Of a DNA stretch of 64,000 nt, positions 11,731 through 40,299 are shown piece by piece. A program made the position numbers and the translations under genes. The stretch comes from an uncultured Sandaracinaceae bacterium (lineage in GTDB: Bacteria; Myxococcota_A; Polyangia; Polyangiales; Houyiibacteriaceae), in NCBI GenBank assembly GCA_964510015.1, contig CAZEAA010000002.1, positions 427 to 64,426 of the forward strand. The letters are read 5' to 3'. The notes under the pieces are model-generated. The model was not told the origin of the DNA and ran no database searches. It worked only from the letters and a program-made list of their open reading frames with translations. Numbering within the stretch: the stretch's first letter is position 1; each line of letters begins with the position of its first letter.

Positions 11731-11807
11731 TGGTCGGGGCGAGAGGATTCGAACCTCCGGCCTCACGGTCCCGAACCGTGCGCGCTACCAAACTGCGCTA
11801 CGCCCCG
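11731..11807 (-). tRNA. tRNA-Pro (anticodon CGG), CCA encoded
   Basis: The minus strand reads CGGGGCG-TA-GCGC-AGTTTGGTA-GCGC-G-CACGG-TTCGGGA-CCGTG-AGGCC-GGAGG-TTCGAAT-CCTCT-CGCCCCG-A-CCA. All four stems pair, and the total is 77 nt. Confidence 0.95.
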
Positions 11808-11846: not shown

Positions 11847-13244
11847 TCAACGAATGAAACGAAATACTTGGTAGGCGTCGGCGCTGCCGTCCACGCCCGC
11901 GGTCCACGGACCGATGCGCACCGCGCCATCGGCGTCCGGCAGCACGCAAGACGCTTCGTGGAAGGGCTCAGCGCGCAGTCCGAGCGCCTCGGCGGCCTGT
12001 GTCACCAGCGCCCCTTCCTCCATCAAGGGCGAGCACACCGCGTAGACCAACACGCCACCGGGGCGCAGCAGACGCGCGGCGTTCGCGAGCAGGCGACCCT
12101 GCACCTGGCCCATGCGCGCCGGATCCTCGGGCGTGAGCCGCAGCAGCAGCTCCGGCCGGCGGTGGAACGTCCCGGCCCCGGTGCAGGGTGCGTCCAGTAG
12201 CACGCGATCGAATTTCCCCTCGAGGCCTGCGCAGCCCACCTCAAGGTTGGCGCACACCAAGTCCACCTCGGTCTGGCAGCCCACGCGCTGCAGCGCCGCT
12301 GGAATCTGTTCGAGGCGTGCTTCGTGGAGCTCGATGGCGCTCACGTGGCCCGTGCGACCCACCGCCTCGGCCAGCTGCAGCGTCTTGCCGCCGCGTCCCG
12401 CGCAGGCGTCCGCCACGCGCTCGCCCGGCTGTGCGCCGACCAGGGCGCCCACCAGCTGCGAGCCGATCTCCTGCACCACGAAGTCGCCGCGCTCGAAGCC
12501 GGCGAGGCTGCGCGGGTCGCCCACGCGTCGAGCCCGCAGCGCCGTGGTGGGCGTGGCGAGGCGCTCGAACGCGCGACCCGCGGTGCCGGCTCCATTGCCC
12601 GACTCGTCAGGCTCGGCATGGAGCTCATCTTCCCCACGCAGCCCCGCGAGCACGGCGTCCACATCGCGGCCGGCTGACACACGCAGATCCAGTGGGGGCG
12701 GCAGGGGGCGCGCCGAGATCAACGTCGCGGCGCGCTCTTGGCCCAGCGACGTGGTCAGCGCCCGCGCGAACCAGGCGGGCAGGGCCACGCTCGTGGGCGG
12801 CGCCGGATGCTCGGGCCGCTCGGCCGCGAGCCCCCGCAGCACGGCGTTCACGAAGCCCGCCACGCGCTGACCGCGCGCCTCGCGCACCGCGTTGACGCTG
12901 GCGTTCACGGCCGCGTGGGGCGGCACGCGCGAGAGGTGCTGCAGCTGATAGACCCCCACCCGCAGCGCGGCCCGGGTCAGCGCGTCCACACGACCGCCGC
13001 GGCTGAGGCGCGCCTCGATGCGGGCGTCCAGGTTCGGCAGCGTCCGCAACACGCCGTAGACGATCTCGGCGGCCAGCGCTGCGTCGCGCCCGCTCACCTG
13101 GCGGCGCACCAGCTCCGCGTCGAGCGCGCGGCTGGCCCAGGCTTCCTCTTGGTCCACCCGGCGCAGCACCTCGATGGCCACGGCCCGCGCGTCGGGGCTC
13201 AGGGGGCGCTGTGGATCGCGGGGAGATCGGGGGTGTCCGGCCAT
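11847..13244 (-). CDS. rsmB: 16S rRNA (cytosine967-C5)-methyltransferase RsmB/Sun
   Basis: Track ORF, 465 aa. It has an N-terminal NusB-like region and a SAM-MTase core (DACAGRGGKT, DAPCTGAGT, YAVCS). The annotated start overlaps rseP by 46 bp, so the true start is uncertain. Confidence 0.85.
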   Translation of the reverse strand: MAGHPRSPRDPQRPLSPDARAVAIEVLRRVDQEEAWASRALDAELVRRQVSGRDAALAAEIVYGVLRTLPNLDARIEARLSRGGRVDALTRAALRVGVYQLQHLSRVPPHAAVNASVNAVREARGQRVAGFVNAVLRGLAAERPEHPAPPTSVALPAWFARALTTSLGQERAATLISARPLPPPLDLRVSAGRDVDAVLAGLRGEDELHAEPDESGNGAGTAGRAFERLATPTTALRARRVGDPRSLAGFERGDFVVQEIGSQLVGALVGAQPGERVADACAGRGGKTLQLAEAVGRTGHVSAIELHEARLEQIPAALQRVGCQTEVDLVCANLEVGCAGLEGKFDRVLLDAPCTGAGTFHRRPELLLRLTPEDPARMGQVQGRLLANAARLLRPGGVLVYAVCSPLMEEGALVTQAAEALGLRAEPFHEASCVLPDADGAVRIGPWTAGVDGSADAYQVFRFIR

Positions 13245-14902
13245 AGGCGCTCGAGGTCGTTCTTGAAGGCGATCGCCATCATGAGCAAGAGCAGCACCAG
13301 GCCCACCAGCCCCGCTTGCTCACGCCTGCGCCGCGACACCGGGCGGCGCAACACGGTCTCCACGAAGAAGAAGAGCAGGTGCCCTCCGTCCAGCATGGGG
13401 ATGGGCAGCAGGTTGAGGATGCCGAGGTTCACGCTCACGAAGGCCATCAGGCGCAGGTAGTCGCTGGCTCCCGCCTGGGCGGCGCGCCCGGTCTCTTCGT
13501 ACACGCTGATGGGACCGCCGATCGACTTCACGGTGATGCGCCCCTGGAAGAGCCGCAGCAGCGAGTACAACGTCAGCTCGACCATGCGGCGCGTCTCGTC
13601 GATGGCCACGCCGCTCGCGTGGGCGACTTCGTGCTCGGGCGAGACGGCAGGCAGGATGGTGACCGGCCGGAACCCGTCGATGCCGAAGACCACGCGGTCG
13701 TACAGCTCGCCGTGGGGCGTGATGCCCTGGGCGCGCGGCAGGGTCACGTGGCCTTCGTGCAGGCGGTCGCCACGGCGCCACTCGATGCGGTGCGAGGCGC
13801 CCTCCTGACCGCTGAGCCGTTCCACCACGTCGGCCCATACGCGCACCACGTGGCCGTCCACCGTGATGATGCGGTCCCCGGGCAAGAGGCCCATGCGGTG
13901 TTCGGCGGACCCGGCGCGCACGTAGGACACATAGGTGGCGGCGCTCTCGAGGCCCACGCGATGCAGGGCGTCACCCGCTCCCGGAGGAGCGACCAACGAG
14001 GTGAACTGCGGACGATAGATGTCCATCTCCACGAGCCCGCCGAGCGCACGCTCGAGGCGCTCCGGCCGCAGCAGCGTGACGGGGATGAGCGCCTGCGTGC
14101 CGAGCGGTCCGCGCGCTTGCTGCAGGGTCTCGATGCGCGTCCCGCCGAGGCCCAGGATGCGGTCGAAGGTGCGGATGCCCGAGCGCGCGGCCACGCTCGC
14201 CGGAGACGTGACGCCCACGATGGGCAGCGGGCTCGCGGGGCTGATGCCCACCAGGCCCACGCGCTCCACCACGCCCAGCTCCGGGATGCGCGCGCTCTCG
14301 CCGGGCGCCGCCAGCAGCACCTCGGCCCAGCGCTCGCGCTCGCCACGTGGCGCCCCGCCGCCGCGCTCGCGCTCGATCTCGAAGACCACCAGCTCGCCCG
14401 GATGCTCGCGCACGATGTGGGAAACGGCGCTGAATGTAGACACCGGCTCACCGTTCACGGCGACCACGCGATCCCCGGGCAGGATCAGCCCGTCGGCCGG
14501 CATGCCCGGACGCACGGAGCCCACCTCGGACGGCGTGAGCGTGGCGTCCGCCCCCAGCGTGACGAAAAAGAAGAGCGCCAGCGGGAAGCACAGGTTCATG
14601 GCCGGCCCCGCCAGCACGATGACCACGCGGCGCCACACCGACTGCGCATAGAAGCTGCGGGGGCGGTCCTCTGCGCGCACGTAGTCGCGCGGGCTTTCGC
14701 CGAGCATGCGCACGTAGCCCCCGAGCGGCAGGACCCCCACGCGATAGACCGTGTCACCCCACTTGGCCGAGACGAGCGTCGGGCCGAACCCCAGGCTGAA
14801 CGTCTCGACCTTGACACCGAACAGCTTGGCCCAGGTGAAGTGGCCGAGCTCGTGGACGAAGATCAGCACTCCCACGAGCATCACGAAGTAGACGAGGTTC
14901 AT
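13199..14902 (-). CDS. rseP: RIP metalloprotease RseP (site-2 protease, M50, with PDZ domains)
   Basis: Track ORF, 567 aa. HELGH is in the first TM region and the C-terminal motif NLLPIPMLDGGH is present. Confidence 0.9.
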   Translation of the reverse strand: MNLVYFVMLVGVLIFVHELGHFTWAKLFGVKVETFSLGFGPTLVSAKWGDTVYRVGVLPLGGYVRMLGESPRDYVRAEDRPRSFYAQSVWRRVVIVLAGPAMNLCFPLALFFFVTLGADATLTPSEVGSVRPGMPADGLILPGDRVVAVNGEPVSTFSAVSHIVREHPGELVVFEIERERGGGAPRGERERWAEVLLAAPGESARIPELGVVERVGLVGISPASPLPIVGVTSPASVAARSGIRTFDRILGLGGTRIETLQQARGPLGTQALIPVTLLRPERLERALGGLVEMDIYRPQFTSLVAPPGAGDALHRVGLESAATYVSYVRAGSAEHRMGLLPGDRIITVDGHVVRVWADVVERLSGQEGASHRIEWRRGDRLHEGHVTLPRAQGITPHGELYDRVVFGIDGFRPVTILPAVSPEHEVAHASGVAIDETRRMVELTLYSLLRLFQGRITVKSIGGPISVYEETGRAAQAGASDYLRLMAFVSVNLGILNLLPIPMLDGGHLLFFFVETVLRRPVSRRRREQAGLVGLVLLLLMMAIAFKNDLERLWPDTPDLPAIHSAP

Positions 14903-24501: not shown

Positions 24502-24905
24502 ACCGCCCTGGAAGTAGGCCTCCGCGCTGCGCGGCTCGTCGAGCGTCAGCGTGCAGGTGTCGTCCTGCTCGGTCTCGCAGATCCCGGTCCAGCCGCCGAA
24601 AGCCTGGCCGTCGTCGGGCTCCGCGGTGACGGTGACGGTGTGGCCCTCGGGGATCTCGTGGGCGTGAACGTCAGCGCTCCATCAGCACGTCTCGTGCCAC
24701 TCGCTCGTGGTGTCCTCTTGGTTCCGTAAAATGAAAGGATGTCGGTGGGTTGCGGTGTTGGCGCGAGCCGGCGGCCTGGGCCGGGCGGTGCCGAGTCGGT
24801 GTGCGCGCACGGGTGCACGGTGGGCGCGCACGGTGCGCCCGCACGCACCCGGGGACGGGGTCGCCGGTGTTGGTACGGCCGGCTCGAACGCGCTATCGCA
24901 TCCGA

Positions 24906-25934
24906 GTGAACCCCGTCGCGCCGATAGGAACCGATGTCGCCCACGCGGCCGAGCTGCTGCGCGCGGGGGAGGTGGTCGGCATGCCCACCGAGACGGTCTA
25001 CGGTCTGGCCGCGGTGGCGTTCGATGAACGCGCGGTGGTGAAGGTGTTCGAGGTGAAGGGGCGGCCGAGCTTCGACCCGCTCATCGTGCACTTGGCCCGC
25101 GCGTCCGAGCTCGGGCAGGTGGCGGACGTCGCGTTGCTCGACACGGCGGACCGTGCCCGCGTGCAGACCCTGGCGGCGCGCTGCTGGCCCGGCCCGCTCA
25201 CGCTGGTGCTCCCGAAGCTGCCGGTCGTGCCCGACCTCGTGACGAGCGGCCTCGACACCGTGGCCGTGCGCGTGCCGGCTCACCCCATGGCCCAGGCCTT
25301 GATCGAGGCAGCTCGGGCGCCCCTGGCGGCGCCGAGCGCGAACCCCTTCGGCTACGTGAGCCCCACCCGCCCCGAGCACGTGGCGCAGAAGCTGGGTCAC
25401 GGGGTGCCCTACGTGCTCGACGGTGGGCCCTGCGAGGTGGGCGTGGAGAGCACCATCCTGGCGGCACCGCGCGCGGGCGTCTCCTCGGCCTGGACGGTGC
25501 TGCGCGACGGAGGCCTGAGCCGTGAGGCGCTCTCGGCAGCGCTGGGCGTGACCCTCGTGGATGGCACCTCCGCGGTGGGGCGCGCCGAGAGCCCCGCGGC
25601 GCCGGGGCAGCTCGAGAGCCACTATGCGCCGCGCACGCCGCTGCGCTTCGGCGCCCTCGAGCCGCTGCTGCGCGACGCGGGCGGCGCGCGCGTGCACGTG
25701 ATCGCCTTTCGTGAGGCCCCCGTAGGCCTCTCGGCCGACGTGCTGTCCCCCTCGGGGGACTTGTCCGAAGCCGCGCGTCGGCTGTTCGCGCTGATGCGGC
25801 GCGCGGACACGCTGGGCGCCGACTTGATCATCGCGGAGCGCGTACCGGACGAAGGGCTCGGGCGCGCCATCAACGACCGCTTGCGACGAGCATCCGCCCG
25901 CGAGGGAGCTGATACGCTGCGCCATGGCCCGTGA
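24906..25934 (+). CDS. sua5: L-threonylcarbamoyladenylate synthase, Sua5/YwlC type (YrdC + Sua5 C-domain)
   Basis: Track ORF 24750..25934. The first 52 codons are Arg-rich junk, so the start is set at GTG 24906. Motifs are GMPTETVYGLAA, KGRPSFDPLIVH, LAAPSANPFG and the QLESHYAP region. Confidence 0.8.
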   Translation: MNPVAPIGTDVAHAAELLRAGEVVGMPTETVYGLAAVAFDERAVVKVFEVKGRPSFDPLIVHLARASELGQVADVALLDTADRARVQTLAARCWPGPLTLVLPKLPVVPDLVTSGLDTVAVRVPAHPMAQALIEAARAPLAAPSANPFGYVSPTRPEHVAQKLGHGVPYVLDGGPCEVGVESTILAAPRAGVSSAWTVLRDGGLSREALSAALGVTLVDGTSAVGRAESPAAPGQLESHYAPRTPLRFGALEPLLRDAGGARVHVIAFREAPVGLSADVLSPSGDLSEAARRLFALMRRADTLGADLIIAERVPDEGLGRAINDRLRRASAREGADTLRHGP

Positions 25935-28602
25935 ACGTGTCGTCTTGGTCGATGGGAGCGCGCTGCTCTACCGCGCGTTCTTCGCGCTGCCCAGCAGTCT
26001 CGCTACTTCGGCCGGCGTGCCCACCAACGCCACGTTCGGCTTCGCCCAGATGTGTCGCAAGGTCTTCGCGGGGAAGCGCCCGAGCTTCGGCGCCGTGGTG
26101 TTCGATGCGCCCGGAGCGACCTTCCGCGAGGAGCGCTTCCCCGAGTACAAGGCGCAGCGGCCGTCCATGCCCGCGGAGCTGCGCGCGCAGCTCGACGACG
26201 TGGACCGCGTGGTGCGCGTCTTCGGGCTGCCCAACCTGCGGGTGAGCGGCTACGAGGCCGACGACGTGATCGCCACGCTCACGCGCGACGCGCTCGAGGC
26301 AGGGCACGAGGTGCACATCGTGTCGGGCGACAAGGACTTTGCGCAGCTGGTGGGGGACCACGTGCGGCTCGTGGACACCATGCGCGACGTCACCTACGAC
26401 GCCGAGCTGGTCCGCAAGAAGTGGGGCGTGCCGCCCGCGCAGATGCGCGACTACCAGGCGCTGGTGGGCGACAAGATCGACAACGTGCCCGGTGTGCCGG
26501 GGATCGGGCAGAAGACCGCGGTCACGTTGCTCGAGCGCTTCGGCACGCTCGAGGGCGTGCTCGCGGGCACCGCCGAGCTGAAGGGCAAGCAGCGCGAGAA
26601 CCTCGAGACGTTCGCCGACCAGGCGCGCTTGTCGCTCGAGCTGGTGACGCTCGACGCGCACGCTCCCTTGCCGCTCACGCTGGCCGAGACGCGCCTCGCC
26701 GAGCCCGACCCGAGCGTGGTGAACGCGGTCTTCCGCGAGCTGGAGTTCTTCTCGCTGCTGGGGGCCGAGGCGCCCGCCGCGGGTGCGGCCGAGGTCACTG
26801 CCGACGTGGCCATCGCGGAGAGCGCCGAGGCCCTGCTCGCGTTTCGCAGCGCGGCCTCCGGCGGGTGCGCCCTCTTCGCCCTCTACGCGGGGCCCACGCC
26901 AGCGGCCGCGGAGCTCTACGGCGTGGCGCTCGCCGCGGGGACCGACGCGCTCTTCGTACCCGTGGGCGGCGCCGACCCCGACGCCACGAACGACGCGGGC
27001 TCGCCGTTGCGCGCGGCGTTGGCCAGCGCGCTCGCCGACGCGAGCTGGCCGAAGCGCGTGCACGACGCGCGCGACACCCAGACGGTGCTCACCGCCCACA
27101 ACCTCCCACTCGCCGGCGTGGTGCTCGACACGCAGCTCGCGTCCTATCTCATCGACCCCACGGCCAACTTGCCGCACGAGCTCGAGCAGGTGACGCGGGC
27201 GTTCCTGCAGCGCGTGCTGCCCAGCCTGGCAGCGCCGGAGGGAGGCGCCGCCAAGCGCGCGCGCCCCACGCCCGCCGACGCTGATCCGCGTGCTCGCGGC
27301 GCCTTTGCGTGCTCGCGTGCGCTGGCCATCGAGGAGCTCAGCGCGCCGCTCGAGGCGTCGCTGAACGACCAGGACCAGGCGCGCGTGATGCGCGACCTGG
27401 AGCTGCCGCTCTCGCAGGTGCTGGCCGACATGCAGTTGGCCGGGGTGCGCGTGGACGCCGACGCCCTGTCGCGGCTCAGCACCGAGTTCGAGCAACGCAA
27501 GGCCGTCATCGAGGCCGAGATCTTCGCGCTGGCTGGCCGCACGTTCAACCTCGCGTCGCCCAAGCAGCTGGGCGAGGTGCTCTTCGACGAGCTGAAGCTG
27601 CCCATCCAGAAGCGCACCAAGACGGGCTACAGCACGGACGCGGAGGTGCTCGAGCGCCTGGCCCCGAAGCACCCCATCGCCGAGAAGATCCTGCGGCAGC
27701 GCGAGCTGGCCAAGCTGATCAACACCTACACCGAGGTGCTGCGCGCCGCCATCGACCCGCGCACGGGGCGTGTGCACTGCACCTTCCAGCAGACGGTCAG
27801 CTCGTCGGGCCGCCTGATCACCACCGAGCCCGACCTGCAGCGCACGCCCATCCGCGGCGAAGACGGGAAGCGCATCCGCGCGGCGTTCCTGCCCCGTGAC
27901 GGCTGGGTGATGGTCTCCGCCGACTGGAGCCAGATCGAGCTGCGTCTCCTGGCGCACCTCTCGGAGGACCCCGCGCTGATGCAGGCCTTCCGGGACGAGG
28001 TGGACGTGCACCGGCGCACAGCCTCCGAGATCTTTCGCTGCGCCCCCAGCGAGGTGGACCGCGTGCAGCGCAACGTGGGCAAGACCGTGAACTTCGCCAC
28101 CATCTACGGCCAGGGGGCCACGGCGCTCGCGCAGGGGCTGGGTGTCGCGCGCAGCGAGGCCAAGGCCTACATCGACCGCTACTTCGAGGTCTACGGCGGC
28201 GTGCGCACGTGGCTCGACCAGAGCATCGCGGGGGCTCACCAGAACGGCTACGTGGACACCATGCTGGGCCGTCGGCGCAGGATCCCGGAGCTCACCAGCG
28301 GTGACCCGGCCACGCGTTCCTACGGCGAGCGCATCGCGGCGAACACGCCCATCCAGGGCTCGGCCGCGGACCTCTGCAAGCTGGCCATGCTGGGTATCGC
28401 GCGGCGCCTGCGCGAAGACGACCTCGCCGCGGCGATGGTGCTGCAGATCCACGACGAGCTGCTGTTCGAGGTGGCGCCGGAGGACCTCGAGCGCTTGGTG
28501 CCCATCGTGCGCCACGAGATGGAGCAGGTGTGGCCGGCGCTGCGCGTGCCGCTGGTGGTGGACCTGGGGCACGGCAAGTCGTGGGAAGAGGCGCACGGAT
28601 GA
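25924..28602 (+). CDS. polA: DNA polymerase I
   Basis: Track ORF, 892 aa. It has a 5'-nuclease N-terminus (VLVDGSALLYRAFFALP), a pol domain with motif A (SADWSQIELRLLAH) and motif B (RRTASEIF...KTVNFATIYG), and QIHDELLFE. Confidence 0.95.
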   Translation: MARERVVLVDGSALLYRAFFALPSSLATSAGVPTNATFGFAQMCRKVFAGKRPSFGAVVFDAPGATFREERFPEYKAQRPSMPAELRAQLDDVDRVVRVFGLPNLRVSGYEADDVIATLTRDALEAGHEVHIVSGDKDFAQLVGDHVRLVDTMRDVTYDAELVRKKWGVPPAQMRDYQALVGDKIDNVPGVPGIGQKTAVTLLERFGTLEGVLAGTAELKGKQRENLETFADQARLSLELVTLDAHAPLPLTLAETRLAEPDPSVVNAVFRELEFFSLLGAEAPAAGAAEVTADVAIAESAEALLAFRSAASGGCALFALYAGPTPAAAELYGVALAAGTDALFVPVGGADPDATNDAGSPLRAALASALADASWPKRVHDARDTQTVLTAHNLPLAGVVLDTQLASYLIDPTANLPHELEQVTRAFLQRVLPSLAAPEGGAAKRARPTPADADPRARGAFACSRALAIEELSAPLEASLNDQDQARVMRDLELPLSQVLADMQLAGVRVDADALSRLSTEFEQRKAVIEAEIFALAGRTFNLASPKQLGEVLFDELKLPIQKRTKTGYSTDAEVLERLAPKHPIAEKILRQRELAKLINTYTEVLRAAIDPRTGRVHCTFQQTVSSSGRLITTEPDLQRTPIRGEDGKRIRAAFLPRDGWVMVSADWSQIELRLLAHLSEDPALMQAFRDEVDVHRRTASEIFRCAPSEVDRVQRNVGKTVNFATIYGQGATALAQGLGVARSEAKAYIDRYFEVYGGVRTWLDQSIAGAHQNGYVDTMLGRRRRIPELTSGDPATRSYGERIAANTPIQGSAADLCKLAMLGIARRLREDDLAAAMVLQIHDELLFEVAPEDLERLVPIVRHEMEQVWPALRVPLVVDLGHGKSWEEAHG

Positions 28603-30966: not shown

Positions 30967-31698
30967 CTACGCCGACAGCTGCCGCCCTCGAGGGACGGCC
31001 AGCATGTACCGCAGCGCGTGGCGCAGGCGCTCCTTCGCGTCCTCTTCGACGACCACGCCGTGGGCCATCACCAAGCGCGTGAAGTCGAGCGCCATGACCC
31101 GCTCGAGGCTCTGTCGGGTGGCCTCGCGGTCGCGCACCATGAAGCGCAGCTCGAGCCCCTGGGCGAGCTTCTGGTGAGCGCCCACTAGGCGCAGGATCAG
31201 CCCCGTGAGCAGGCCCTGCGTGGGGCCCAGCACGTGGAACACCAGGTCGGTCACCACCAGCGTGCGCGAAGGAGCATGAAAGAAGAGGGTCTCGTCGAGC
31301 GCCGGCATTCCCTCCACGGGGATGGCCTGCACGTCGCGGGGCATGCCCTCGGGCAGGGCTAGGTGCGAAGGGACCGCGCGGCCCAGCTTGCCGAGCTTCG
31401 CCGGGAGGCCACCGGCCAGGTGCACCTGCGCGTCCGGCCAGCGCGCTGCCGCGTCACCCACGAAGAGGTGATGGAACTTGTTGGGCGAGACGATGTGCGT
31501 CACCCGCCCCAGCGCCGAGACGCGCGCGGCGAGCGCGTCGTCCATGCGCAGCGGCGAGATCACCATCAGCTCGCCCGAGCCAACACCCAGCAGCGTGGAG
31601 CGTATGGGCAGGTGAAACCCCGGGGCCACGCGCAGGTGGCTCTCGAGGGCGTGGACGTCATCGGCGAGGCGGACGAGCTCGGTCATGTGGCCTTCCAT
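30967..31698 (-). CDS. DUF4336-like protein (metallo-beta-lactamase-fold relative)
   Basis: Track ORF, 243 aa. VSPNKFHHLFVGD and the overall pattern recall DUF4336. It lies 25 nt downstream of cheB on the same strand. Confidence 0.45.
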   Translation of the reverse strand: MEGHMTELVRLADDVHALESHLRVAPGFHLPIRSTLLGVGSGELMVISPLRMDDALAARVSALGRVTHIVSPNKFHHLFVGDAAARWPDAQVHLAGGLPAKLGKLGRAVPSHLALPEGMPRDVQAIPVEGMPALDETLFFHAPSRTLVVTDLVFHVLGPTQGLLTGLILRLVGAHQKLAQGLELRFMVRDREATRQSLERVMALDFTRLVMAHGVVVEEDAKERLRHALRYMLAVPRGRQLSA

Positions 31699-31723: not shown

Positions 31724-32845
31724 TCATGGGCTCAGTGACGTTCGTCGTCCACGGAGGGACCGCTCGATGGCGTGGCCAACTCGGTCGATATGGAGGATCT
31801 CGTCCGCGGCGCCCGCCTCGGCGGCGGCTCGCGGCATGCCGTAGATCACGCTCGAGCCTTCGTCCTGCGCGATGGTTCGGTGACCGGCACGCCGCATGGC
31901 CAGCAGCCCCTTCGCGCCGTCCCGCCCCATGCCGGTCAAGAGCACCCCGACCGCGGTCCCGCGATGATGCATGGCGACGCTCTCGAAGAAGACGTCCACC
32001 GAGGGCCGGTAGGGGTAGTCGCGCGGCTCGGCGATGTAGTCGAGGCGCCCGTCCGACCCGACCCGCAGGTGGTCGCTGGTGGCCGCCAGCAGGGCCTCCC
32101 CGACGCGCAGCGAGTCGCCCGCTCTCGCGAGGCTCACGGGGAACCCCGAGCTCTGCGCAATCCACGCTGCGATCGTTCCGGCGAACGACTCGTCAACGTG
32201 CTGAACGATGACGATCCCGCCGGGGAATGGCCGCTCCAGGGAGGCCAGCACACGGCTCACGGCGTTCGGGCCGCCCGTCGAAGCGCCAATCGCCACCATG
32301 GCCGGCACGTGCCCTCGCGCGCCCACGATCAGCGAGCCGCCGGCGCTCGCAGGGGGCTCGGACGACGGGCGGCGTGCCGGAACGTTCGCCGTCGCGGAAG
32401 CTGGCAGTGCCGCCTCGCTCCGCGCGCGGTCGGCGGCGCGACGAGCGCCGAGGCGGGCCGCGAGCGCGAGCTTGCGCACCAGCGACGACACCCCGTGCAG
32501 CACCGAGGAGCCATCGAGCCACGGCATGTCCACCACGTCGAGCGCGCCCTCTTCCATGGCGTCGTAGACCTCGTTCACCCGCTCTCCGCGCCCCGTGCGG
32601 ACCAAGAGCACGGCGGCGCGGCACTCGGCGTCGAGGCGCTTCACCGTCGCGGCAGCAGTCGGCCCCGGGAGGTCCACCGAGAGCAGCACCACGGAGACGG
32701 CCTCGGCCCCGGCCCGGCGCACGGCGTCGGCGGCGTCTCGCGCGCTCCAGGCGACGACGTGATCGGGCAGGGACTCCACGGCCTTCCGGAGCACCTCGAT
32801 GGCCGACGACGAGGGATGGGCGATCCCGACGCGCGTCACGGTCAC
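31724..32845 (-). CDS. cheB: Chemotaxis methylesterase CheB/WspF-like with degenerate receiver domain
   Basis: Real part of track ORF 31724..33283. GTG 32845 overlaps the cheY TGA (GTGA). The catalytic regions are AIGASTGGPNA, IVIVQHV and LTGMGRDGAKG. The REC-like N-terminus lacks the DD pair (IAHPSSS) and the conserved Lys (VVDMP). Confidence 0.8.
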   Translation of the reverse strand: MTVTRVGIAHPSSSAIEVLRKAVESLPDHVVAWSARDAADAVRRAGAEAVSVVLLSVDLPGPTAAATVKRLDAECRAAVLLVRTGRGERVNEVYDAMEEGALDVVDMPWLDGSSVLHGVSSLVRKLALAARLGARRAADRARSEAALPASATANVPARRPSSEPPASAGGSLIVGARGHVPAMVAIGASTGGPNAVSRVLASLERPFPGGIVIVQHVDESFAGTIAAWIAQSSGFPVSLARAGDSLRVGEALLAATSDHLRVGSDGRLDYIAEPRDYPYRPSVDVFFESVAMHHRGTAVGVLLTGMGRDGAKGLLAMRRAGHRTIAQDEGSSVIYGMPRAAAEAGAADEILHIDRVGHAIERSLRGRRTSLSP

Positions 32846-33246
32846 GACGGCCCCCCGATCAGCTCTTCCACCGCGCGGGCCAGTGTCTCGTCGTGAAAGC
32901 TGGTCTTGCCGAGGTAGTAGTCCGCGCCGGCTTCGAGGCCGCGCATGCGGTCGGCGTCGCGCTCCTTGTAGGAGACGATCATCACGGGCAGCACCCTCAG
33001 GCGAGGGTGATCCTTGATGGCGCGCGTCAGCTCGAGCCCGTTCATGCGCGGCATGTCCACGTCGGTGATCACCAGGTCGAACTCGCCCGCGCGCACGGCG
33101 TTCCAGCCGTCGGCGCCGTCGGTGGCGACCACCACCTCGTAGCCCCGGTTCTCGAGGATCTGCCGCTCCACTTCGCGGACCGTGATGGAGTCGTCCACCA
33201 CCAGCACGCGCTTCCGGGTGCGGGCACGGCTGTCGTCCACCGACAC
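32842..33246 (-). CDS. cheY: CheY-like receiver (corresponds to the C-terminal REC of WspE)
   Basis: Track ORF, 134 aa with a GTG start. Motifs are VLVVDDS, DLVITDVDMPRMNG and IVSYK. It is in the same frame as cheA, separated from it by TAG plus 12 codons. Confidence 0.8.
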   Translation of the reverse strand: MSVDDSRARTRKRVLVVDDSITVREVERQILENRGYEVVVATDGADGWNAVRAGEFDLVITDVDMPRMNGLELTRAIKDHPRLRVLPVMIVSYKERDADRMRGLEAGADYYLGKTSFHDETLARAVEELIGGPS

Positions 33247-33282
33247 GAGTCGCGGGCGCCCCCGCCGCGCGAGCGAAGCACA

Positions 33283-35184
33283 CTAGCGCGCGAGGTCGTC
33301 CACGTCGAGCACTACGATGGGGCTCCCGTCGCGTCCCATCGCGATGGCCACCACGTCCTGCACGCGTCCGAGCCGCGGGTCGAGCGGACGCACGACCAGC
33401 TCGAGCTCGCCGACGATGCGATCCACCACGAGGCCGAAGCGGTCTTGCCGGTCGCCGATGACGACCACGTCGAGCGCGTCTTCCCGAGCGACCCCCTGGC
33501 CCAGCTCGAGCACCTCGGCCAGCGTCACCAGTCCGACCGGGTGGCCGTCCACCATCATCTGCTCGCGACCCTCGATGGTGGACACCTGCTCGCTCGAGCC
33601 GCGCACCACGCGCTCCACACGGTGCAGCGCGATGGCGTGCGGGGAGCCCGCCACCTCGATGTGGAGGCAGCGAACGACGGAGCGCGTGAGGGGCAGCTCG
33701 AGCTCGAAGCGGGTGCCCACGCCGAGGTGCGAGACGATGCGCACGTCGCCTCCCACCTCTCGGACGGTGCTCTGGACGACGTCGAGCCCGACGCCGCGCC
33801 CCGAGAGCTCGCTGACCGCGTCCCGTGTGGAGAAGCCTGGTAGGAACAGGAACTCGAGCAGCTCGCGGGTGTCGAGATTTGCGGCGCTCGCGGCGGGCGC
33901 GAACCCTCGCTCCGCGATCCGCGCGCGGATCTTCTCGACGTCGATGCCCCGACCGTCATCGCTGATGGCGACGGCCAGCAGGCCCGCGCGATGGCGGGCT
34001 TCGATGCGCAGCGTGCCCGTCTCGCCCTTGCCCTTCGCCACGCGCTCCGCGGGCGTCTCGAGCCCATGATCCACGGCGTTGCGCAGCAAGTGCCCGAGCG
34101 GCGCGTCGAGCTTCTCGAGGATGTCGCGGTCGACGCCGACCGCCCCGCCCACGATCTCGAGCTTCACCTCCTTGCCCAGCGCACGACCCAGGTCGCGCAC
34201 CACCCGCGGGTACTTCGAGGCACCCTCGTCGAGTGGGCGCATGCGGGAGGCCAGCACCTCGCGATGCAGCCGCGAGGCGAGATCGTGGGAGCGCCGGGTC
34301 TCGTCCTCGAGCGTGTCCAGGCGCTCGGTCACCGCCTGAGCGAGCTCACTCGAGCGTTGGCGCGCTTCGTCCACCAGGCCCAGCGCGAGCGGCGCGCCCC
34401 GCAGCAGGTCGTGAAGCTCATCGAGCACCTCCCCGAGGCCGAGGTGCCGCGTGCGGGTCTCGCGGAGCTCGTCGACGGCGCCTTGGAGCCGGCCCGACGC
34501 CACCAGCGTCTCGCTGGCCAGGTTGAGCACCCTGCTCATGCTCTCGGCGGCCACGCGAATGACCCGCTCACGCGCCTCGGCCGCCGGCGCAGGACGGGCG
34601 TTGTCGGGCTCGTTCGGTGCGGCCGGCTCGACCGCGCTGGGCCGTGGGGAGGCTGCACGGGGAGGGTCGGTCACCGCGGACGCATGTCCGGGAGCCGGCC
34701 CCACCGGGGTTGCGTGGACCGCTGTCGATGGAGGCGGCACGGGTGGCTCGGGCGTGGCAGGCAACGGCTGCAGCGGCCCAGGCGCTGTCCGCGCCGTCAC
34801 GAGCGCGGCGACCGCCGCCGTGATGTCGGCCGCCCGCGTGTCCTTGAACGCCTTCGCGGCAGCCTCGTCGCAGGCCGCCAGCTGCCGGAGGAGGTCCACG
34901 CACGCGAGCTCCGCGTCGATGATGCCGCGGTGGACGCGTAGCTCCCCAGCGCGCGCAGCGACGAACACGTCCTCCATCGCGTGCGCGATCTGCACGCCGG
35001 CCTCGAGACCCACGATCTTCGCCGCGCCCTTGATGGAGTGCGCCGCGCGCATCAAGGCGTCCAGCGTGGCGCGGTCGGCGGGTGACGCTTCGAGCGTCAG
35101 CAGGCCCGCGTCGAGGGCGGCCGCGTGGGCATCGAGCTCCTCGCGGAAGAGCTCGAGCAGGCTCATGGCGCCGAAGTCGCTCAT
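33283..35184 (-). CDS. cheA: Chemotaxis histidine kinase CheA/WspE-like (Hpt-dimerisation-HATPase-CheW domain)
   Basis: Real part of track ORF 33283..35736. ATG 35184 overlaps the upstream TGA (ATGA). It has the Hpt motif AAHSIKGAAKIVG, HLLRNAVDHG, DDGRGID, GRGVGLDVV and a C-terminal CheW-like domain. Confidence 0.9.
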   Translation of the reverse strand: MSDFGAMSLLELFREELDAHAAALDAGLLTLEASPADRATLDALMRAAHSIKGAAKIVGLEAGVQIAHAMEDVFVAARAGELRVHRGIIDAELACVDLLRQLAACDEAAAKAFKDTRAADITAAVAALVTARTAPGPLQPLPATPEPPVPPPSTAVHATPVGPAPGHASAVTDPPRAASPRPSAVEPAAPNEPDNARPAPAAEARERVIRVAAESMSRVLNLASETLVASGRLQGAVDELRETRTRHLGLGEVLDELHDLLRGAPLALGLVDEARQRSSELAQAVTERLDTLEDETRRSHDLASRLHREVLASRMRPLDEGASKYPRVVRDLGRALGKEVKLEIVGGAVGVDRDILEKLDAPLGHLLRNAVDHGLETPAERVAKGKGETGTLRIEARHRAGLLAVAISDDGRGIDVEKIRARIAERGFAPAASAANLDTRELLEFLFLPGFSTRDAVSELSGRGVGLDVVQSTVREVGGDVRIVSHLGVGTRFELELPLTRSVVRCLHIEVAGSPHAIALHRVERVVRGSSEQVSTIEGREQMMVDGHPVGLVTLAEVLELGQGVAREDALDVVVIGDRQDRFGLVVDRIVGELELVVRPLDPRLGRVQDVVAIAMGRDGSPIVVLDVDDLAR

Positions 35185-35831
35185 GCCACGCACCTCGCGA
35201 GCGCGGCGAACAGCGAGGCGCCGTCCATGAGTCCAACCAGACGCTCTCCATCGTGGACGACGCCGCTCACGTGAGGGGACAGAGATCGAGAGAGCGTCGC
35301 TGGTGCGGGCAGCACGTCGGCGTCCGCGAAGCGGCGAATGCCGTCCACCTCGTCTACCCGCAGGCTGAAGCGTCCGTTTGGGTCCTCGATCACCACGAGT
35401 CGAGCGCGGGCTCCCGCGCCATCGTCGGAGGGGATGTCGAGGAGCGCGCGCAGGGAGACCGACAAGACCACCTGACCCCTCACGTTGACCAGCCCTTCGA
35501 ACGCTCCTCCGGTGCGGTGGGTGAGCGGGAACGCGCGCCGGGCCTCGGTGACCTCGACGCAGCTGGCCGACGGAATGCCCAGCCACTCGTTGCCCACCCG
35601 GAGGGTGAGGTAGGTGGTGGACGGACCGAGTGGCGGAGCCTCGGGCGTGGCCAGCCGCTCGGTCCACTCCGATCGGTAGCCGGGGGGCATCGGCCGGTCG
35701 AACAGTCCACGCGCCGTGTCGGCGAACACCGGGCAACGCAGGCAGTGCACGTGCGTCACGAGCTCCGCGCAGGTTCGGTCGCCGTACACGCCCACGCGCT
35801 CGAAGCAGCTGGGTTCACCCGCGGTGCTCAC
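35181..35831 (-). CDS. cheW: CheW-like coupling protein, WspD-like, with N-terminal 4-Cys motif
   Basis: Track ORF, 216 aa with a GTGA overlap with cheR. The N-terminus is CFERVGVYGDRTCAELVTHVHCLRCPVF, and a CheW domain follows (LTLRVGNEWLGIP...). Confidence 0.8.
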   Translation of the reverse strand: MSTAGEPSCFERVGVYGDRTCAELVTHVHCLRCPVFADTARGLFDRPMPPGYRSEWTERLATPEAPPLGPSTTYLTLRVGNEWLGIPSASCVEVTEARRAFPLTHRTGGAFEGLVNVRGQVVLSVSLRALLDIPSDDGAGARARLVVIEDPNGRFSLRVDEVDGIRRFADADVLPAPATLSRSLSPHVSGVVHDGERLVGLMDGASLFAALARCVA

Positions 35832-37117
35832 GACTCACCGCCCTTCGGGCGTTGACGGCTTGCGCGTGCTCGGAACTGGGCCGCGCTCGGGTCTCCCCGA
35901 CGCTCGCGCAAGAGCGCCATGTTCACCAGGCTCGCGTAGTGCTCGCTGTCGAGGTAGATGGCCCGCGAGAGGCAGCGCTCGGCCTCCTCGAGGCGCCCCT
36001 CCTCCTGGCAGATCACGCCGAGCAGGTGGAAGGCATCGGCGGTGGGACGCGCCAGCGCCTCCTCGACGAGCACCCGGGCCTCGGCCAGCGCCCCCTGGTC
36101 GGCGAGCGCGCGCGCGACCGCGAGCGGATCGCGCTCTTCGGTCTCCGCACGGCGCGGCGTCTCGGACGCCGGACCCGTTGCCGCTCGCGCGAGCACCACG
36201 CCACGCGCCGTGTCGGCGCTCGTGACCGGGGCAGCGGGCGGCTGGCGCGGGGAGGTCCTTCCGAGCGGTGTCCGTGGGCCCGACGGGGTTCGTGGCGGCA
36301 GCGCGGGCGTCACGCTCGCCGAGCTGTCGTGGATGCGCTCGTAGCCGAACGCCCGGACGTCGGGCAGCCGGCGCAGACCGTCGTCGAACCCCGCGAGAGA
36401 CTCCGCGTGGCCCACGAACAGCAGGCCGCCCACCACCAAGCTGGCACGCAGCGTGGCCACCAACGCCTCTCGTGCCCGTCGGTCGAAGTAGATGAGCAGG
36501 TTGCGGCAGAAGATGACGTCGTAGGCGAGGGCGCCGCGCAGGACGTCGGGATCCACGGCGTTTCCCCGACGAAACGACACGCTCTCCCGCGCGGCCGGCA
36601 CGAGCGCGAAGTGTTCGCCGCTCGGCACGAACCAATGCGGCTTCGAGAGCTCTGCCCGCGGGCTGCGAAACGAGCTGTTCCGGTAGAGCCCGGCGGCCGC
36701 ACGCGCGAGGGCGGCGGTGCTCACGTCCATGCCGTCCACCCGAAACTGCGACGGCTGTAGGCCCGCCTCGCGAAGCGCGATGGCGATCGAGTACGTCTCT
36801 TCTCCCGTGGCACACGGGAGACTCAGCACGCGCAGTGGCGCGTTCGCGTCAGGGGAACGTCTCCGGGCGTGGCGAGCCAGCTCCATGAACGGGTTCTCGT
36901 CGCGGAAGAACCACGTCTCCGGGACCACGAGCGCCTCCACCAGCGCGTCGAGCTCCGCCGCATCGCGCTGCAGCGTCTCGTACCACAGCGCCGGCGACAA
37001 CCCCGTGGCCCGCACCCGGGCGCGGATGGCGTCGTCGTAGACGGCGTCGCCGAGGGTGGTGGGCGAGAACCCCACGTGGTCCCGGAGCAGGGCGCGCACG
37101 GCAGCACCCACGTTCAT
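35828..37117 (-). CDS. cheR: Chemotaxis methyltransferase CheR/WspC-like with C-terminal TPR
   Basis: Track ORF, 429 aa. Motifs are ETWFFRD, LRVLSLPCATGEETYSIA and DVIFCRNLLIYF. The C-terminal 100 aa are TPR-like (FHLLGVICQEEGRLEEAERCLSRAIYLD). Confidence 0.85.
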   Translation of the reverse strand: MNVGAAVRALLRDHVGFSPTTLGDAVYDDAIRARVRATGLSPALWYETLQRDAAELDALVEALVVPETWFFRDENPFMELARHARRRSPDANAPLRVLSLPCATGEETYSIAIALREAGLQPSQFRVDGMDVSTAALARAAAGLYRNSSFRSPRAELSKPHWFVPSGEHFALVPAARESVSFRRGNAVDPDVLRGALAYDVIFCRNLLIYFDRRAREALVATLRASLVVGGLLFVGHAESLAGFDDGLRRLPDVRAFGYERIHDSSASVTPALPPRTPSGPRTPLGRTSPRQPPAAPVTSADTARGVVLARAATGPASETPRRAETEERDPLAVARALADQGALAEARVLVEEALARPTADAFHLLGVICQEEGRLEEAERCLSRAIYLDSEHYASLVNMALLRERRGDPSAAQFRARASRQRPKGGES

Positions 37118-37554
37118 GGCGCCGCCATCAGGGAGCGCAGCTCGGGAGGCATCGCGCCGGCGAGAACGAGCATGTGTACGGGGCGCCCATCGATGACCAC
37201 GGCGTCCGCGACCGCCGGGTGACGCGAGACGTCGAGGCGCCGTTCGGGCGCCGGCAGACGGCGCATGGATATTCGGCCGACGAGCACGCCCACCAGCCCA
37301 TCGCGGGTGCGCGACAGCACCACGCGGACGGCGAGGCTGTCGCCGGTGGCCACGCCCGCGAGCGCCAGCGCCAGATCGACGACGGGCACGACGGTGCCGC
37401 CATACGAGAACGTGCCGAGCAGCGCAGGAGGCGCGCCCGGCAAGGGCCGCAGCGTGGGCAGCGGCAGCACCGTGACGACGTCCGCGCAGAGGATCGCGAA
37501 CAGGTCGCCTCCGACTTGGACGATCAGGGCCGCCGGCTCTAGGGGTGGGCTCAC
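37114..37554 (-). CDS. cheW: CheW coupling protein (WspB-like)
   Basis: Track ORF, 146 aa. GTG 37554 overlaps the MCP stop (GTGA), and its stop overlaps the cheR ATG (ATGA). The CheW-domain pattern is LIVQVGGDLFAI...GTFSYGGTVVPVVDL. Confidence 0.75.
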   Translation of the reverse strand: MSPPLEPAALIVQVGGDLFAILCADVVTVLPLPTLRPLPGAPPALLGTFSYGGTVVPVVDLALALAGVATGDSLAVRVVLSRTRDGLVGVLVGRISMRRLPAPERRLDVSRHPAVADAVVIDGRPVHMLVLAGAMPPELRSLMAAP

Positions 37555-39206
37555 TCGCTCACCCGGAAGTGCGCGATCTCGTTGCGCAGACCACCGACCG
37601 CGTCTCGCAGGTGCTCCGTGGCGGCGTTGAACTCGCGAACGGACGCGGCGGTGTGACGCGCCCCGTCGGTCAGGGACCGCATGGCCTCGTCGATCTGGCG
37701 GGCGCCCTGGTTCTGGCTGCGCATGCCTTCGCCCACCTGCTCGAAGCGATCGCTGGCCGACTTCACCTGCTCGATGATGCCGCCGAAGCGCAGCCCGACG
37801 TCGCTCGCGATGGCGACGCCCTTCTCCACGTCGTGGGCGAACCGCTCCATCTCCGCGACGCCGGTGGTCACGGCGCTCTGCATCTGCCGCACGATCTGCT
37901 CGATGTTCAGCGTGGACACGGCGGTCTGGTCCGCGAGGCGCCGAATCTCGCGGGCGAGCACCAGGAACCCGAGGCCGTGCTCGCCCGCCTTCTCGGCTTC
38001 GATCGCGGCGTTCACGCTCAGCAGGTGGGTCTGGTCGGCGATCTTGGTGATGGTGGTGACCACCAGGTTGATGTCGCCGGCCTTGTCGCGAATGGTGGCC
38101 AGCTTGCTCGAGATCCCGGTGGAGGAGCTGGCCAGCCCGCGCATGCGCTGGTCGAGGCTCACGATGGACGCACGGCCGTCTTCGGCGATGTCGGCCGTCT
38201 GGTTGGCCGTCCGCGAGACGTCTTCCATGGCCGACAGCAGCTCCTGGCTGGTGGCGCTGATCTCCTTCACCGCGGCGGCGATCTGGCTGCTCGAGGCGCC
38301 GAAGCCCGCGGCCGTGGCCTCTTGCGACGCGGTGGTCGCGGCGAACTCCGTGGCGGTGGACATGAGCTCCACGCTCGAGCGCTTCACGCGCGTCACCAGG
38401 CTCTCGAGGCTCTCGGCCATGGCGCGGATCGAGACCAAGAGTGCGCCGGCTTCGTCGCTTCCCTCCGCGGCGACGCGCACGGTGAGGTCGCCGGCAGCCA
38501 CGCGCTCGGCGGCGGCGGTGGCCGCGCTCACCCGTCGCACCAGGCGCCTAGCCACCCCGCGGGCGTACATGCCGAGCGCGAGGGCCAGCACCAGCCCGCC
38601 GATCCCCAGCGCGAGCAACGTGGACATCCCCGAGCGCAGCTCGCTCGTCGCGGTCGCCTCGTGCATGCGGTTGCGCTCGGTGGCGAGCACCACCACGCGA
38701 TCGATCGCGCGCCGGTGCGCGGCGTAGTGTTGGTAGAGTTCGCCGCGCGCGAGCTGCGTCGCTGCGGCCTGATCGCCGGCGCGGACGGCGGCCATGAACA
38801 CGCTGTCGCGTGCCTCGTAGAACGCGACCGCCGCTCGATACGAGTCGTCGACCATCGCACTGCGGAGCGGGCCCGGCGGCAGATCCCGGTCCCAGCGGAG
38901 GTGGGTGGTCTCGTACTCCCCTCTCAACTGACTTCCTCGCGCGACGAACTCCGCGATGCGGTCCGGGTTGGTCTCCTGTGTGAGCTGGAGAACCAACAGG
39001 TAGGACTCGACGATGTACTCGGGTGGCGGTAGGACGTCTGCGATCAGGTCTTTCCCCTCGATGATCGAGTCATACAAGGGACCCTTGACGCGAACAGTCT
39101 CGATTGTGACCCACGCACGGTGCGCGAAGCCCACGAAGAGGCTGACCTGGAGGGCCACGAGGATGAAGATTTGACCGGCAATCCCTATGTTGATTCGTCG
39201 ATCCAC
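37551..39206 (-). CDS. Methyl-accepting chemotaxis protein (WspA-like): 2 TM, periplasmic helical sensor, HAMP, signalling domain
   Basis: Track ORF 37551..39389 extends across the divergent gene's start. I prefer GTG 39206 (MDRRINIGIAGQIFILVALQVSLFVGF); the start is uncertain. The highly conserved tip is ITKIADQTHLLSVNAAIEAEKAGEHGLGFLVLAREIRRLADQT. Confidence 0.8.
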   Translation of the reverse strand: MDRRINIGIAGQIFILVALQVSLFVGFAHRAWVTIETVRVKGPLYDSIIEGKDLIADVLPPPEYIVESYLLVLQLTQETNPDRIAEFVARGSQLRGEYETTHLRWDRDLPPGPLRSAMVDDSYRAAVAFYEARDSVFMAAVRAGDQAAATQLARGELYQHYAAHRRAIDRVVVLATERNRMHEATATSELRSGMSTLLALGIGGLVLALALGMYARGVARRLVRRVSAATAAAERVAAGDLTVRVAAEGSDEAGALLVSIRAMAESLESLVTRVKRSSVELMSTATEFAATTASQEATAAGFGASSSQIAAAVKEISATSQELLSAMEDVSRTANQTADIAEDGRASIVSLDQRMRGLASSSTGISSKLATIRDKAGDINLVVTTITKIADQTHLLSVNAAIEAEKAGEHGLGFLVLAREIRRLADQTAVSTLNIEQIVRQMQSAVTTGVAEMERFAHDVEKGVAIASDVGLRFGGIIEQVKSASDRFEQVGEGMRSQNQGARQIDEAMRSLTDGARHTAASVREFNAATEHLRDAVGGLRNEIAHFRVSE

Positions 39207-39294
39207 GAAGTACTCGTTTCGGCCATGTTTCCGGGCTGTTTCTGCGCAGTGCGAAGCTTGACTGGCTCTCTCGCATGATATCCTGCGTCGACTC

Positions 39295-40299
39295 ATGGAT
39301 GAACTAAAACCTGTCGTCTTGCTCGTCGATGACCAGCGCATGGTCGGCGAGGCGGTGCGTCGAATGCTCGCTTCCGAAGCCGACATCACGTTTCATTTCT
39401 GCATCGATCCCACCGTCGCTCTCGAGCGCGCCATCGAAGTTCATCCCACGATCATTCTGCAAGACCTCGTCATGCCGGGGGTCGACGGGTTCATGCTGCT
39501 GGCGAGCTACCGCTCGACCCCTGCCATCCGCGACGTCCCGGTGGTGGTGCTGTCGTCGAACGAGGAGCCGAAGGACAAGAGCCGAGCGTTCGCCGAGGGC
39601 GCCGCCGACTACCTCGTGAAGCTGCCCGACCCGGTGGAGCTGGTGGCCCGCGTGAGGGCGCACTCACGTCGCTTTCTCCTCGAGCGGGCCCGCGAGCGCA
39701 TGCTCCGCGAGCTGCAAGAGACCCAGCAGCAGCTCGAGGCCAGCAACGCCCGGCTCCACCTGCTCTCGTCGGTGGACGGGCTCACCGGAATCGCCAATCG
39801 GCGCATCTTCGACGACACGCTGGCGCGCGAAGCCCGCCGAGCCGAGCGCGAGGGAGACGTCCTCTCCGTGGTCCTGGTGGACATCGACTACTTCAAGCGC
39901 TTCAACGACTCCTACGGGCACCAGGGCGGCGACGAAGCGCTGCGGCAGGTCGCGCAGGCGCTCGCCAGCGTGGCGCGGCGAGCAGGCGACACCGTGGCGC
40001 GCTACGGTGGAGAAGAGTTCGCGTTCGTGCTGCCGTCCACGTCGCTCGACGGAGCCCTGCGTGTCGCCGAAGACGCGCGTGCCGCCGTTCACCGCCTCGC
40101 GATCGAGCATCGGTCGTCGGACGTCAGCGATCACGTCACCCTCAGCCTCGGGGTGGCGACCGCCGTCGCCGCGGGTGCGGCCATCGACGTGACCAACCTG
40201 ATCACGCGCGCGGACGCCGCCCTCTACGAAGCGAAGCGGAACGGGCGCAACCGGGCGGAGTGCGACCCCGGCTCGGCGCTCGGCGCCTCGCTCACGTAG
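39295..40299 (+). CDS. wspR: Response-regulator diguanylate cyclase, WspR-like (REC-GGDEF)
   Basis: Track ORF, 334 aa. Motifs are VLLVDDQ, ILQDLVMPGVDG, DYLVKLPD, GGEEF (RYGGEEF) and the I-site RAGD five residues upstream. By memory, it closely parallels P. aeruginosa WspR. Confidence 0.85.
   Translation: MDELKPVVLLVDDQRMVGEAVRRMLASEADITFHFCIDPTVALERAIEVHPTIILQDLVMPGVDGFMLLASYRSTPAIRDVPVVVLSSNEEPKDKSRAFAEGAADYLVKLPDPVELVARVRAHSRRFLLERARERMLRELQETQQQLEASNARLHLLSSVDGLTGIANRRIFDDTLAREARRAEREGDVLSVVLVDIDYFKRFNDSYGHQGGDEALRQVAQALASVARRAGDTVARYGGEEFAFVLPSTSLDGALRVAEDARAAVHRLAIEHRSSDVSDHVTLSLGVATAVAAGAAIDVTNLITRADAALYEAKRNGRNRAECDPGSALGASLT

Follow-up and report, generated by a model that had tools for sequence, protein, structure and literature searches.

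Locus and gene organization

The window analyzed here is a stretch of 64,000 nucleotides from an uncultured Sandaracinaceae bacterium (GenBank assembly GCA_964510015.1, contig CAZEAA010000002.1, positions 427 to 64,426), with a G+C content of approximately 72%. It carries, on the minus strand, an operon for a chemosensory system of the Wsp type, and the subject of this work is the wspE-like gene of this operon, in which a hybrid of a CheA kinase and a CheY-like receiver (REC) domain is interrupted by one TAG codon. A single reading frame runs from the ATG at 35184 to the TGA at 32844..32842, and the TAG at 33285..33283 is the sole stop inside it. The minus-strand codons at the break read GAC CTC GCG CGC TAG TGT GCT TCG CTC GCG CGG CGG GGG CGC CCG CGA CTC GTG TCG GTG GAC, so that the TAG is followed by twelve sense codons (CASLARRGRPRL, 33282..33247) and then by the GTG at 33246..33244. 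A first-pass annotation of this DNA had described the TAG as the only in-frame break between a CheA-like open reading frame (ORF) of 633 codons and a receiver ORF of 134 codons, and both the coordinates and the frame were confirmed when rechecked. It had also remarked that this is the only junction of the operon without a 4-bp overlap, which is correct: the remaining five junctions are all overlaps of 4 bp, with the sequence GTGA or ATGA.

The composition of the operon, established with Pfam models, is that of a Wsp system. A methyl-accepting chemotaxis protein (MCP) with a HAMP domain, two CheW proteins, a CheR with TPR repeats and a CheB are encoded together with the wspE-like gene, and a response regulator with REC and GGDEF domains is encoded nearby. 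By this composition the operon is of the Wsp type, and the output of the pathway is predicted to be cyclic di-GMP. The order of the genes, including the REC-GGDEF gene that lies upstream and is transcribed divergently, is the same in three other contigs (L002, L003, and L084).

The two reading frames descend from one gene

The arrangement in one frame is by itself not beyond chance, given that one in three pairs of neighboring genes share a frame and that long stretches free of stops occur in a GC-rich genome. Indeed, a scan of the whole window for neighbors in the same frame returned many chance pairs, as well as antisense shadow ORFs with a high G+C content at third codon positions (GC3), and it is a poor detector of broken genes. 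The shared frame is thus insufficient, and the identification of a single interrupted ORF relies on homology, because the connector between the two parts is conserved as protein and the stop takes the place of a conserved serine.

The best matches to the read-through translation are fused hybrids with the order Hpt-HATPase-CheW-REC, with identities of 95%, 86%, and 87% over 100% of the query, and the next matches have identities of 59-67%. The nearest named relatives are metagenome-assembled genomes (MAGs) of Sandaracinaceae, Myxococcota. Across the junction the fused best matches read ...DDLAR-S-CASLARRGRPRLVSVD... or a close variant of it. The receiver is present in all of the top 120 homologues with the exception of one frameshifted fragment. 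In a scan of contigs with the protein P0003, the match runs to the end of the receiver in 80 of the 80 distant genome loci listed, which belong to many phyla; the listing was filled by the generic pattern DVDMPRMN, such that close relatives and the genome of the window are not among these loci. Close and distant orthologues alike are fused CheA-REC hybrids. The comparison with WspE of Pseudomonas that had been made in the first-pass annotation is apt.

The position of the stop was examined in the fetched WspE-like hybrids that match the junction motif, which number 112 and come from many phyla. In these the motif D-x-x-D-[LMIV]-x-R-S lies 25-34 residues ahead of the receiver core, and R-S-[CIV]-x-x-L is found at a nearly constant distance from the receiver. 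The residue at the position of the stop is a serine in 109 of them, a leucine in two and a cysteine in one. At the level of DNA, the codon at this position is TCG in the contigs L001, L002 (the Sandaracinaceae MAG GCA_016702865.1), and L003 (from run SRR20005812, a study of a recirculating aquaculture system). The alignment of orthologous loci that had been proposed as a check thus gave a sense codon (TCG, serine) and a fusion at the site. Orthologues with consistently separate CheA and CheY genes, which had been named as the outcome that would refute the first-pass observation, were not seen, and the opposite was found.

The substitution pattern of the connector is that of a coding region. 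Its 12 codons differ from those of L002 by four synonymous and no non-synonymous changes, and from those of L003 by six and none, respectively. For the receiver core the corresponding values are 40 synonymous and no non-synonymous changes and 37 and one against the two relatives (77 and one in total). Judged by this pattern, the connector codons are coding sequence under purifying selection and not an intergenic spacer. The earlier observation that the 12 codons are in the same frame as the flanking ORFs stands, while their reading as a spacer does not. Given that the serine is conserved and that the connector has undergone only synonymous changes, the TAG lies inside a connector that is conserved, at a codon that is itself conserved.

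The stop is private to one contig

In a look-up of exact sequences, the products of 633 amino acids (P0122) and 134 amino acids (P0121) were each found on one contig only, an unannotated NCBI record of 67,139 bp that is apparently the window's own, while the exact products of the neighboring genes were found on 10 to 29 contigs in the NCBI, Logan, ENA, and JGI collections. A recorded protein of 780 amino acids (P0134) is equal to the read-through translation of the window with a serine at the stop, and it is encoded on the contigs L084 and L085.

The contigs that cover the site allow the difference to be placed at a single base. Contig L084 (9,656 nt, SRR13208890) is equal to the window in 9,655 of 9,656 bases, the sole mismatch being 33284, and this is also the sole mismatch of contig L085 (3,768 nt aligned, ERZ724529). 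Eight more contigs that reach the site were fetched through the CheB gene and all have a C; for L088, L092, L093, and L094 the base 33284 is again the only mismatch. In total, all 11 of the other covering contigs (including L001) read C against the one contig of the window, and they come from 11 runs or analyses, although some of the ERZ assemblies might share reads with some of the SRR runs. The population is present in the runs SRR13208890, SRR13208909, SRR28520264-292, SRR14932552, and SRR8831203, and in those underlying ERZ724527/529/546 and ERZ27257534. When the 36-nt junction, with an N at the variable base, was searched in the JGI metagenome scan, neither allele was matched.

The consensus of the window was also compared over a larger region, by pooling the contigs that cover the site with ten contigs over 19.6-27.7 kb, such that approximately 19 kb of the window were compared. 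No indels were found against the near-identical contigs, and the only gaps, three in number, are against L087, which represents a divergent strain (97%). The base 33284 is the sole isolated substitution that is private to the window in this region, and the other private differences are confined to two dense clusters. Given the absence of indels against near-identical contigs and of any other isolated private substitution, the consensus looks clean.

The first cluster consists of 22 differences in 25823-26219 (approximately 400 nt) against six contigs that are otherwise near-identical, at the junction of a Sua5-like gene (24750-25934) and polA (25924-28602). Its appearance is that of a tract from another strain or from recombination, or of a consensus that is chimeric between strains. 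These two genes overlap by 11 nt in the window (24750-28602) and are also two genes in L003, whereas in L002 (compared at 12518-14286) a single product of 1,231 amino acids with Sua5/YrdC and DNA polymerase I domains is called; it may be a fusion, a frameshift or an artefact of the start call in that MAG. The second cluster comprises 10 differences in 31174-31320, where two contigs only provide coverage, within a DUF4336 gene (30967-31698, minus strand). Sites close to it, at 31419-31609, vary among the other contigs as well, and this cluster also looks like a strain or recombination tract.

Defects are found in wspE-like genes of other assemblies. In contig L001 (ERZ27257534), whose product P0001 has 745 amino acids, 105 nt (35 codons) are missing from the CheW-like domain, with the join at an 11-nt repeat, as seen when window 33407-33500 (minus strand, P5 domain) is compared with L001 3739-3749. 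This is a variant with an in-frame deletion or else a collapse in the assembly. The final 100 nt of L001, in the start of cheB, have 21 mismatches. Protein P0008 (636 amino acids, from an ENA contig of 3,206 nt, a relative of L002) follows a WspE of the P0002 type up to '...REDALDVV' and then continues in another frame. This frameshifted copy comes from the assembly of a second species, and therefore broken versions of the gene occur in low-coverage assemblies.

Origin of the stop

By the comparisons above, the gene descends as one ORF and is one in every other member of the population that was sampled, and the stop is private to this contig. In the allele of the window itself the receiver is not fused in the same ORF, and the gene is a WspE-type hybrid by descent only. 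On balance, we favor the explanation that this is an ordinary fused wspE gene with a real and very young nonsense change, namely C to A on the coding strand at 33284, which converts the TCG of a conserved serine to TAG. The recent nonsense mutation that had been listed among the first-pass options fits the data, given that the TAG is one base away from the TCG of 11 identical or near-identical contigs. The site also has the features by which a nonsense allele is recognized, that is, a single disabling change, an intact ORF in close relatives and no further decay: the sequence of the receiver is identical to that of the fused allele, and the flanks are without decay. A real allele is further supported by the consensus being otherwise clean over approximately 19 kb. 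A long contig, which here has 67 kb, implies decent coverage, at which the de Bruijn assemblers used for short-read metagenomes rarely fix random errors, and mismatches of such kind in short-read metagenome assemblies are usually real variants.

In this case the sampled cells would have contained the nonsense allele, and the assembler would have taken it into the consensus. Ribosomes would stop after Arg633 and give a kinase core with a complete P5 domain and without the receiver. Re-initiation at the GUG at 33246, 36 nt downstream, or at the one at 33240, would yield little receiver or none. The translation of CheB, which is coupled to the stop of the receiver by the GTGA overlap, would probably fall. 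Signaling to the REC-GGDEF diguanylate cyclase would be altered and, by analogy with receiver-site mutants of Pseudomonas, most likely raised; the TAG allele would thus probably increase the output of the Wsp pathway.

Several points weigh against a young nonsense allele. The signature product of 134 amino acids is in no assembly of Logan, ENA, or JGI, even though several series of runs contain the organism at 100% identity; if the MAG was built from one of these, an artefact would be indicated. On the plus strand the change is from G to T, the classic error type of oxidative damage. The fact that the change is a nonsense change carries no statistical weight, since the site was selected as a stop. 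In P. fluorescens, only four specific residues of the WspE receiver gave the activated phenotype (PMC6324874). A truncation may lack an advantage, and a nonsense allele in the majority is therefore harder to explain.

The more extreme view that the TAG is an advantageous allele that has risen to the majority in one natural sample, with the Wsp-like pathway locked on and cyclic di-GMP increased through a receiver uncoupled from the kinase and a weaker translation of the coupled methylesterase, is in our opinion improbable. If true, the 'wrinkly spreader' mutations of the laboratory would have a natural equivalent in myxobacteria, and the locus would show a hybrid kinase at the very point of gene fission. 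An argument for selection from the fact that 2.2% of the possible substitutions in the wsp genes create stops was considered and dropped, since the site had been chosen for being a stop.

The main alternative, to which we assign a smaller but still substantial likelihood, is that the cells carry TCG and that the A at 33284 is confined to the consensus that was deposited, as an error of assembly, sequencing or polishing. The sequencing error that had been proposed beside the mutation is compatible with the same evidence of one base in one assembly. The allele is in one contig only, while C is found in the 11 contigs from other assemblies, several of which are identical over 3 to 9.6 kb, and the products of 134 and 633 amino acids are missing from every other source in the protein collection. 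The change from G to T on the plus strand is a known signature of damage or error. The same gene is also defective in other metagenome assemblies, as in L001, where 105 nt are deleted in frame at a short repeat, and in the frameshifted P0008; these defects may themselves be artefacts. What speaks against an error is the quality of the remaining consensus, which over approximately 19 kb has no indels against near-identical contigs and no other isolated private substitution, together with the length of the contig and the coverage that this length suggests.

An evolved and functional division, in which CheA and the CheY-like receiver have genes of their own and re-initiation at the GTG at 33246 gives the receiver, is very unlikely. 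In its favor, the domains of both halves are intact, a GTG in the same frame follows 36 nt past the stop, and other chemosensory systems commonly have CheA and CheY in separate genes. Nonetheless, a split at this point is found in no relative, near or distant, and members of the population that are identical in DNA except for 33284 are fused. The stop falls in a conserved serine within a conserved motif and not in a variable linker, the supposed spacer has evolved as coding sequence (10 synonymous changes and no non-synonymous ones), and the 4-bp overlap present at all other junctions of the operon is missing here. In a motif check, the only possible ribosome-binding site for the GTG at 33246 was a run of G 12 nt upstream, which is compatible with weak re-initiation. 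The genuine split with re-initiation at GTG that had been offered as an option does not hold as an evolved feature, given that the stop is kept in no relative and that the spacer is conserved coding sequence.

Least credible of all is the programmed readthrough or recoding of UAG to give both the kinase of 633 amino acids and the hybrid of 780 amino acids, given that the stop is not conserved and that all relatives have a sense codon in its place. Since the domain after the stop is intact and in the same frame, any leak would lead to the full-length protein, and spontaneous readthrough occurs at a low level at every stop codon. Nonetheless, TAG is the ordinary stop of 12 of the 39 predicted genes in the window and is, therefore, not reassigned. 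In E. coli, termination is efficient at a UAG that has a U after it. The RNA fold of 33190-33310, around the stop, is no better than that of shuffled sequence (z = +1.0), and the tRNA scan of the window gave no suppressor tRNA. For these reasons stop-codon readthrough, which had also been proposed, was discarded as an evolved feature, and there is no sign of an evolved two-gene design or of a signal for recoding.

Comparison with known Wsp systems

WspE of Pseudomonas is a hybrid histidine kinase of the CheA/CheY type, and its targets of phosphorylation are WspR and WspF. The locus of the window has the same gene set as the Pseudomonas system (MCP, CheW, CheR-TPR, CheW, CheA-REC hybrid, CheB, and REC-GGDEF regulator), the connector motif between P5 and the receiver and the receiver itself are conserved, and members of the cluster are labeled WspE and WspC in the sources. 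It differs from the Pseudomonas system in three respects. In this assembly a single TAG breaks the hybrid. The WspR-like gene lies upstream, at the MCP end, and is divergent, while in Pseudomonas it is the last gene of the operon, after wspF. The organism is, by its nearest named relatives, a myxobacterium of the Sandaracinaceae.

The Wsp pathway, including the receiver of WspE, is a documented target of mutation (PMC6324874, PMC10522488), which also speaks for a real allele. In P. fluorescens SBW25, missense changes at four residues of the WspE receiver around the phosphorylated aspartate activate the pathway (PMC6324874), and disruption of the WspE receiver in P. lurida was associated with an increase in cyclic di-GMP and with higher fitness in a host (PMC10522488). 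The lesion described here resembles these 'wrinkly spreader' mutations of WspE in SBW25 and P. lurida in that it affects the receiver part and falls in a pathway that is a mutational hot spot. It differs from the alleles of SBW25, which are missense changes and not truncations, in that the receiver is uncoupled by a stop, and a truncation may not be equivalent to them. A search of the literature found no paper in which a truncation of the WspE receiver was tested.

The site shares the features of an ordinary nonsense pseudogene or an error in a MAG consensus: there is a single stop, the ORF is otherwise intact, the orthologues are intact, and the change is private. Nothing in the present data sets it apart, and it is nothing new in kind: the gene family is known, and the premature stop is private. 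For annotation, this means that the two ORFs should be described as one wspE gene with an internal stop (a pseudogene or a possible sequencing error) and not as two genes for CheA and CheY. The site should be cited neither for a split WspE nor for readthrough in bacteria. Its biological weight is small, being that of a conventional Wsp-type operon with a premature stop of one base in one assembly; if the allele is real and frequent in the sample, it would be a modest example of a Wsp-pathway mutation in a natural myxobacterial population.

Features of the operon region

The coordinates of the wspE-like gene, of its parts and of the neighboring genes are collected in Table 1.

Table 1. Features of the Wsp-type operon and of the divergent regulator gene, in window coordinates.
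Feature	Position	Strand	Remarks
Premature TAG stop	33283..33285	-	Variant base 33284: A on minus, T on plus; C in all other contigs (plus-strand G), giving TCG (Ser)
Whole wspE-like hybrid, Hpt-HATPase-CheW(P5)-REC	32842..35184	-	780 codons plus stop in other assemblies; broken once in the window, at codon 634
5' part, CheA-like kinase core of 633 codons, ending at TAG	33283..35184	-	Pfam: Hpt 9-102, HATPase_c 363-500, CheW-like P5 506-632
P5-to-REC connector, 12 codons (CASLARRGRPRL), coding	33247..33282	-	Synonymous changes only against relatives; motif R-S-[CIV]-x-x-L
3' part, REC ORF of 134 codons from the first in-frame GTG	32842..33246	-	Pfam Response_reg 14-125; sequence intact, same as in the fused allele
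CheB/WspF-like methylesterase	31724..32845	-	Its GTG overlaps the REC stop (GTGA)
CheW, WspD-like	35181..35831	-	4-bp overlap with the wspE start
CheR with TPR repeats, WspC-like	35828..37117	-	Pfam; exact protein named WspC by one source
CheW, WspB-like	37114..37554	-	Pfam
MCP with HAMP, WspA-like	37551..39389	-	Pfam; start uncertain
REC-GGDEF response regulator, WspR-like	39295..40299	+	Matches to REC and GGDEF models; divergent from the operon

The start of the MCP gene is ambiguous. The longest ORF has 612 amino acids and begins at the GTG at 39389, while on L084, which is identical, the gene call gives a product of 551 amino acids with its start near 39206. In its longer version the gene would overlap with the start region of the divergent REC-GGDEF gene. 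Elsewhere in the window, the only tRNA gene is a tRNA-Pro (CGG) at 11731-11807 on the minus strand.

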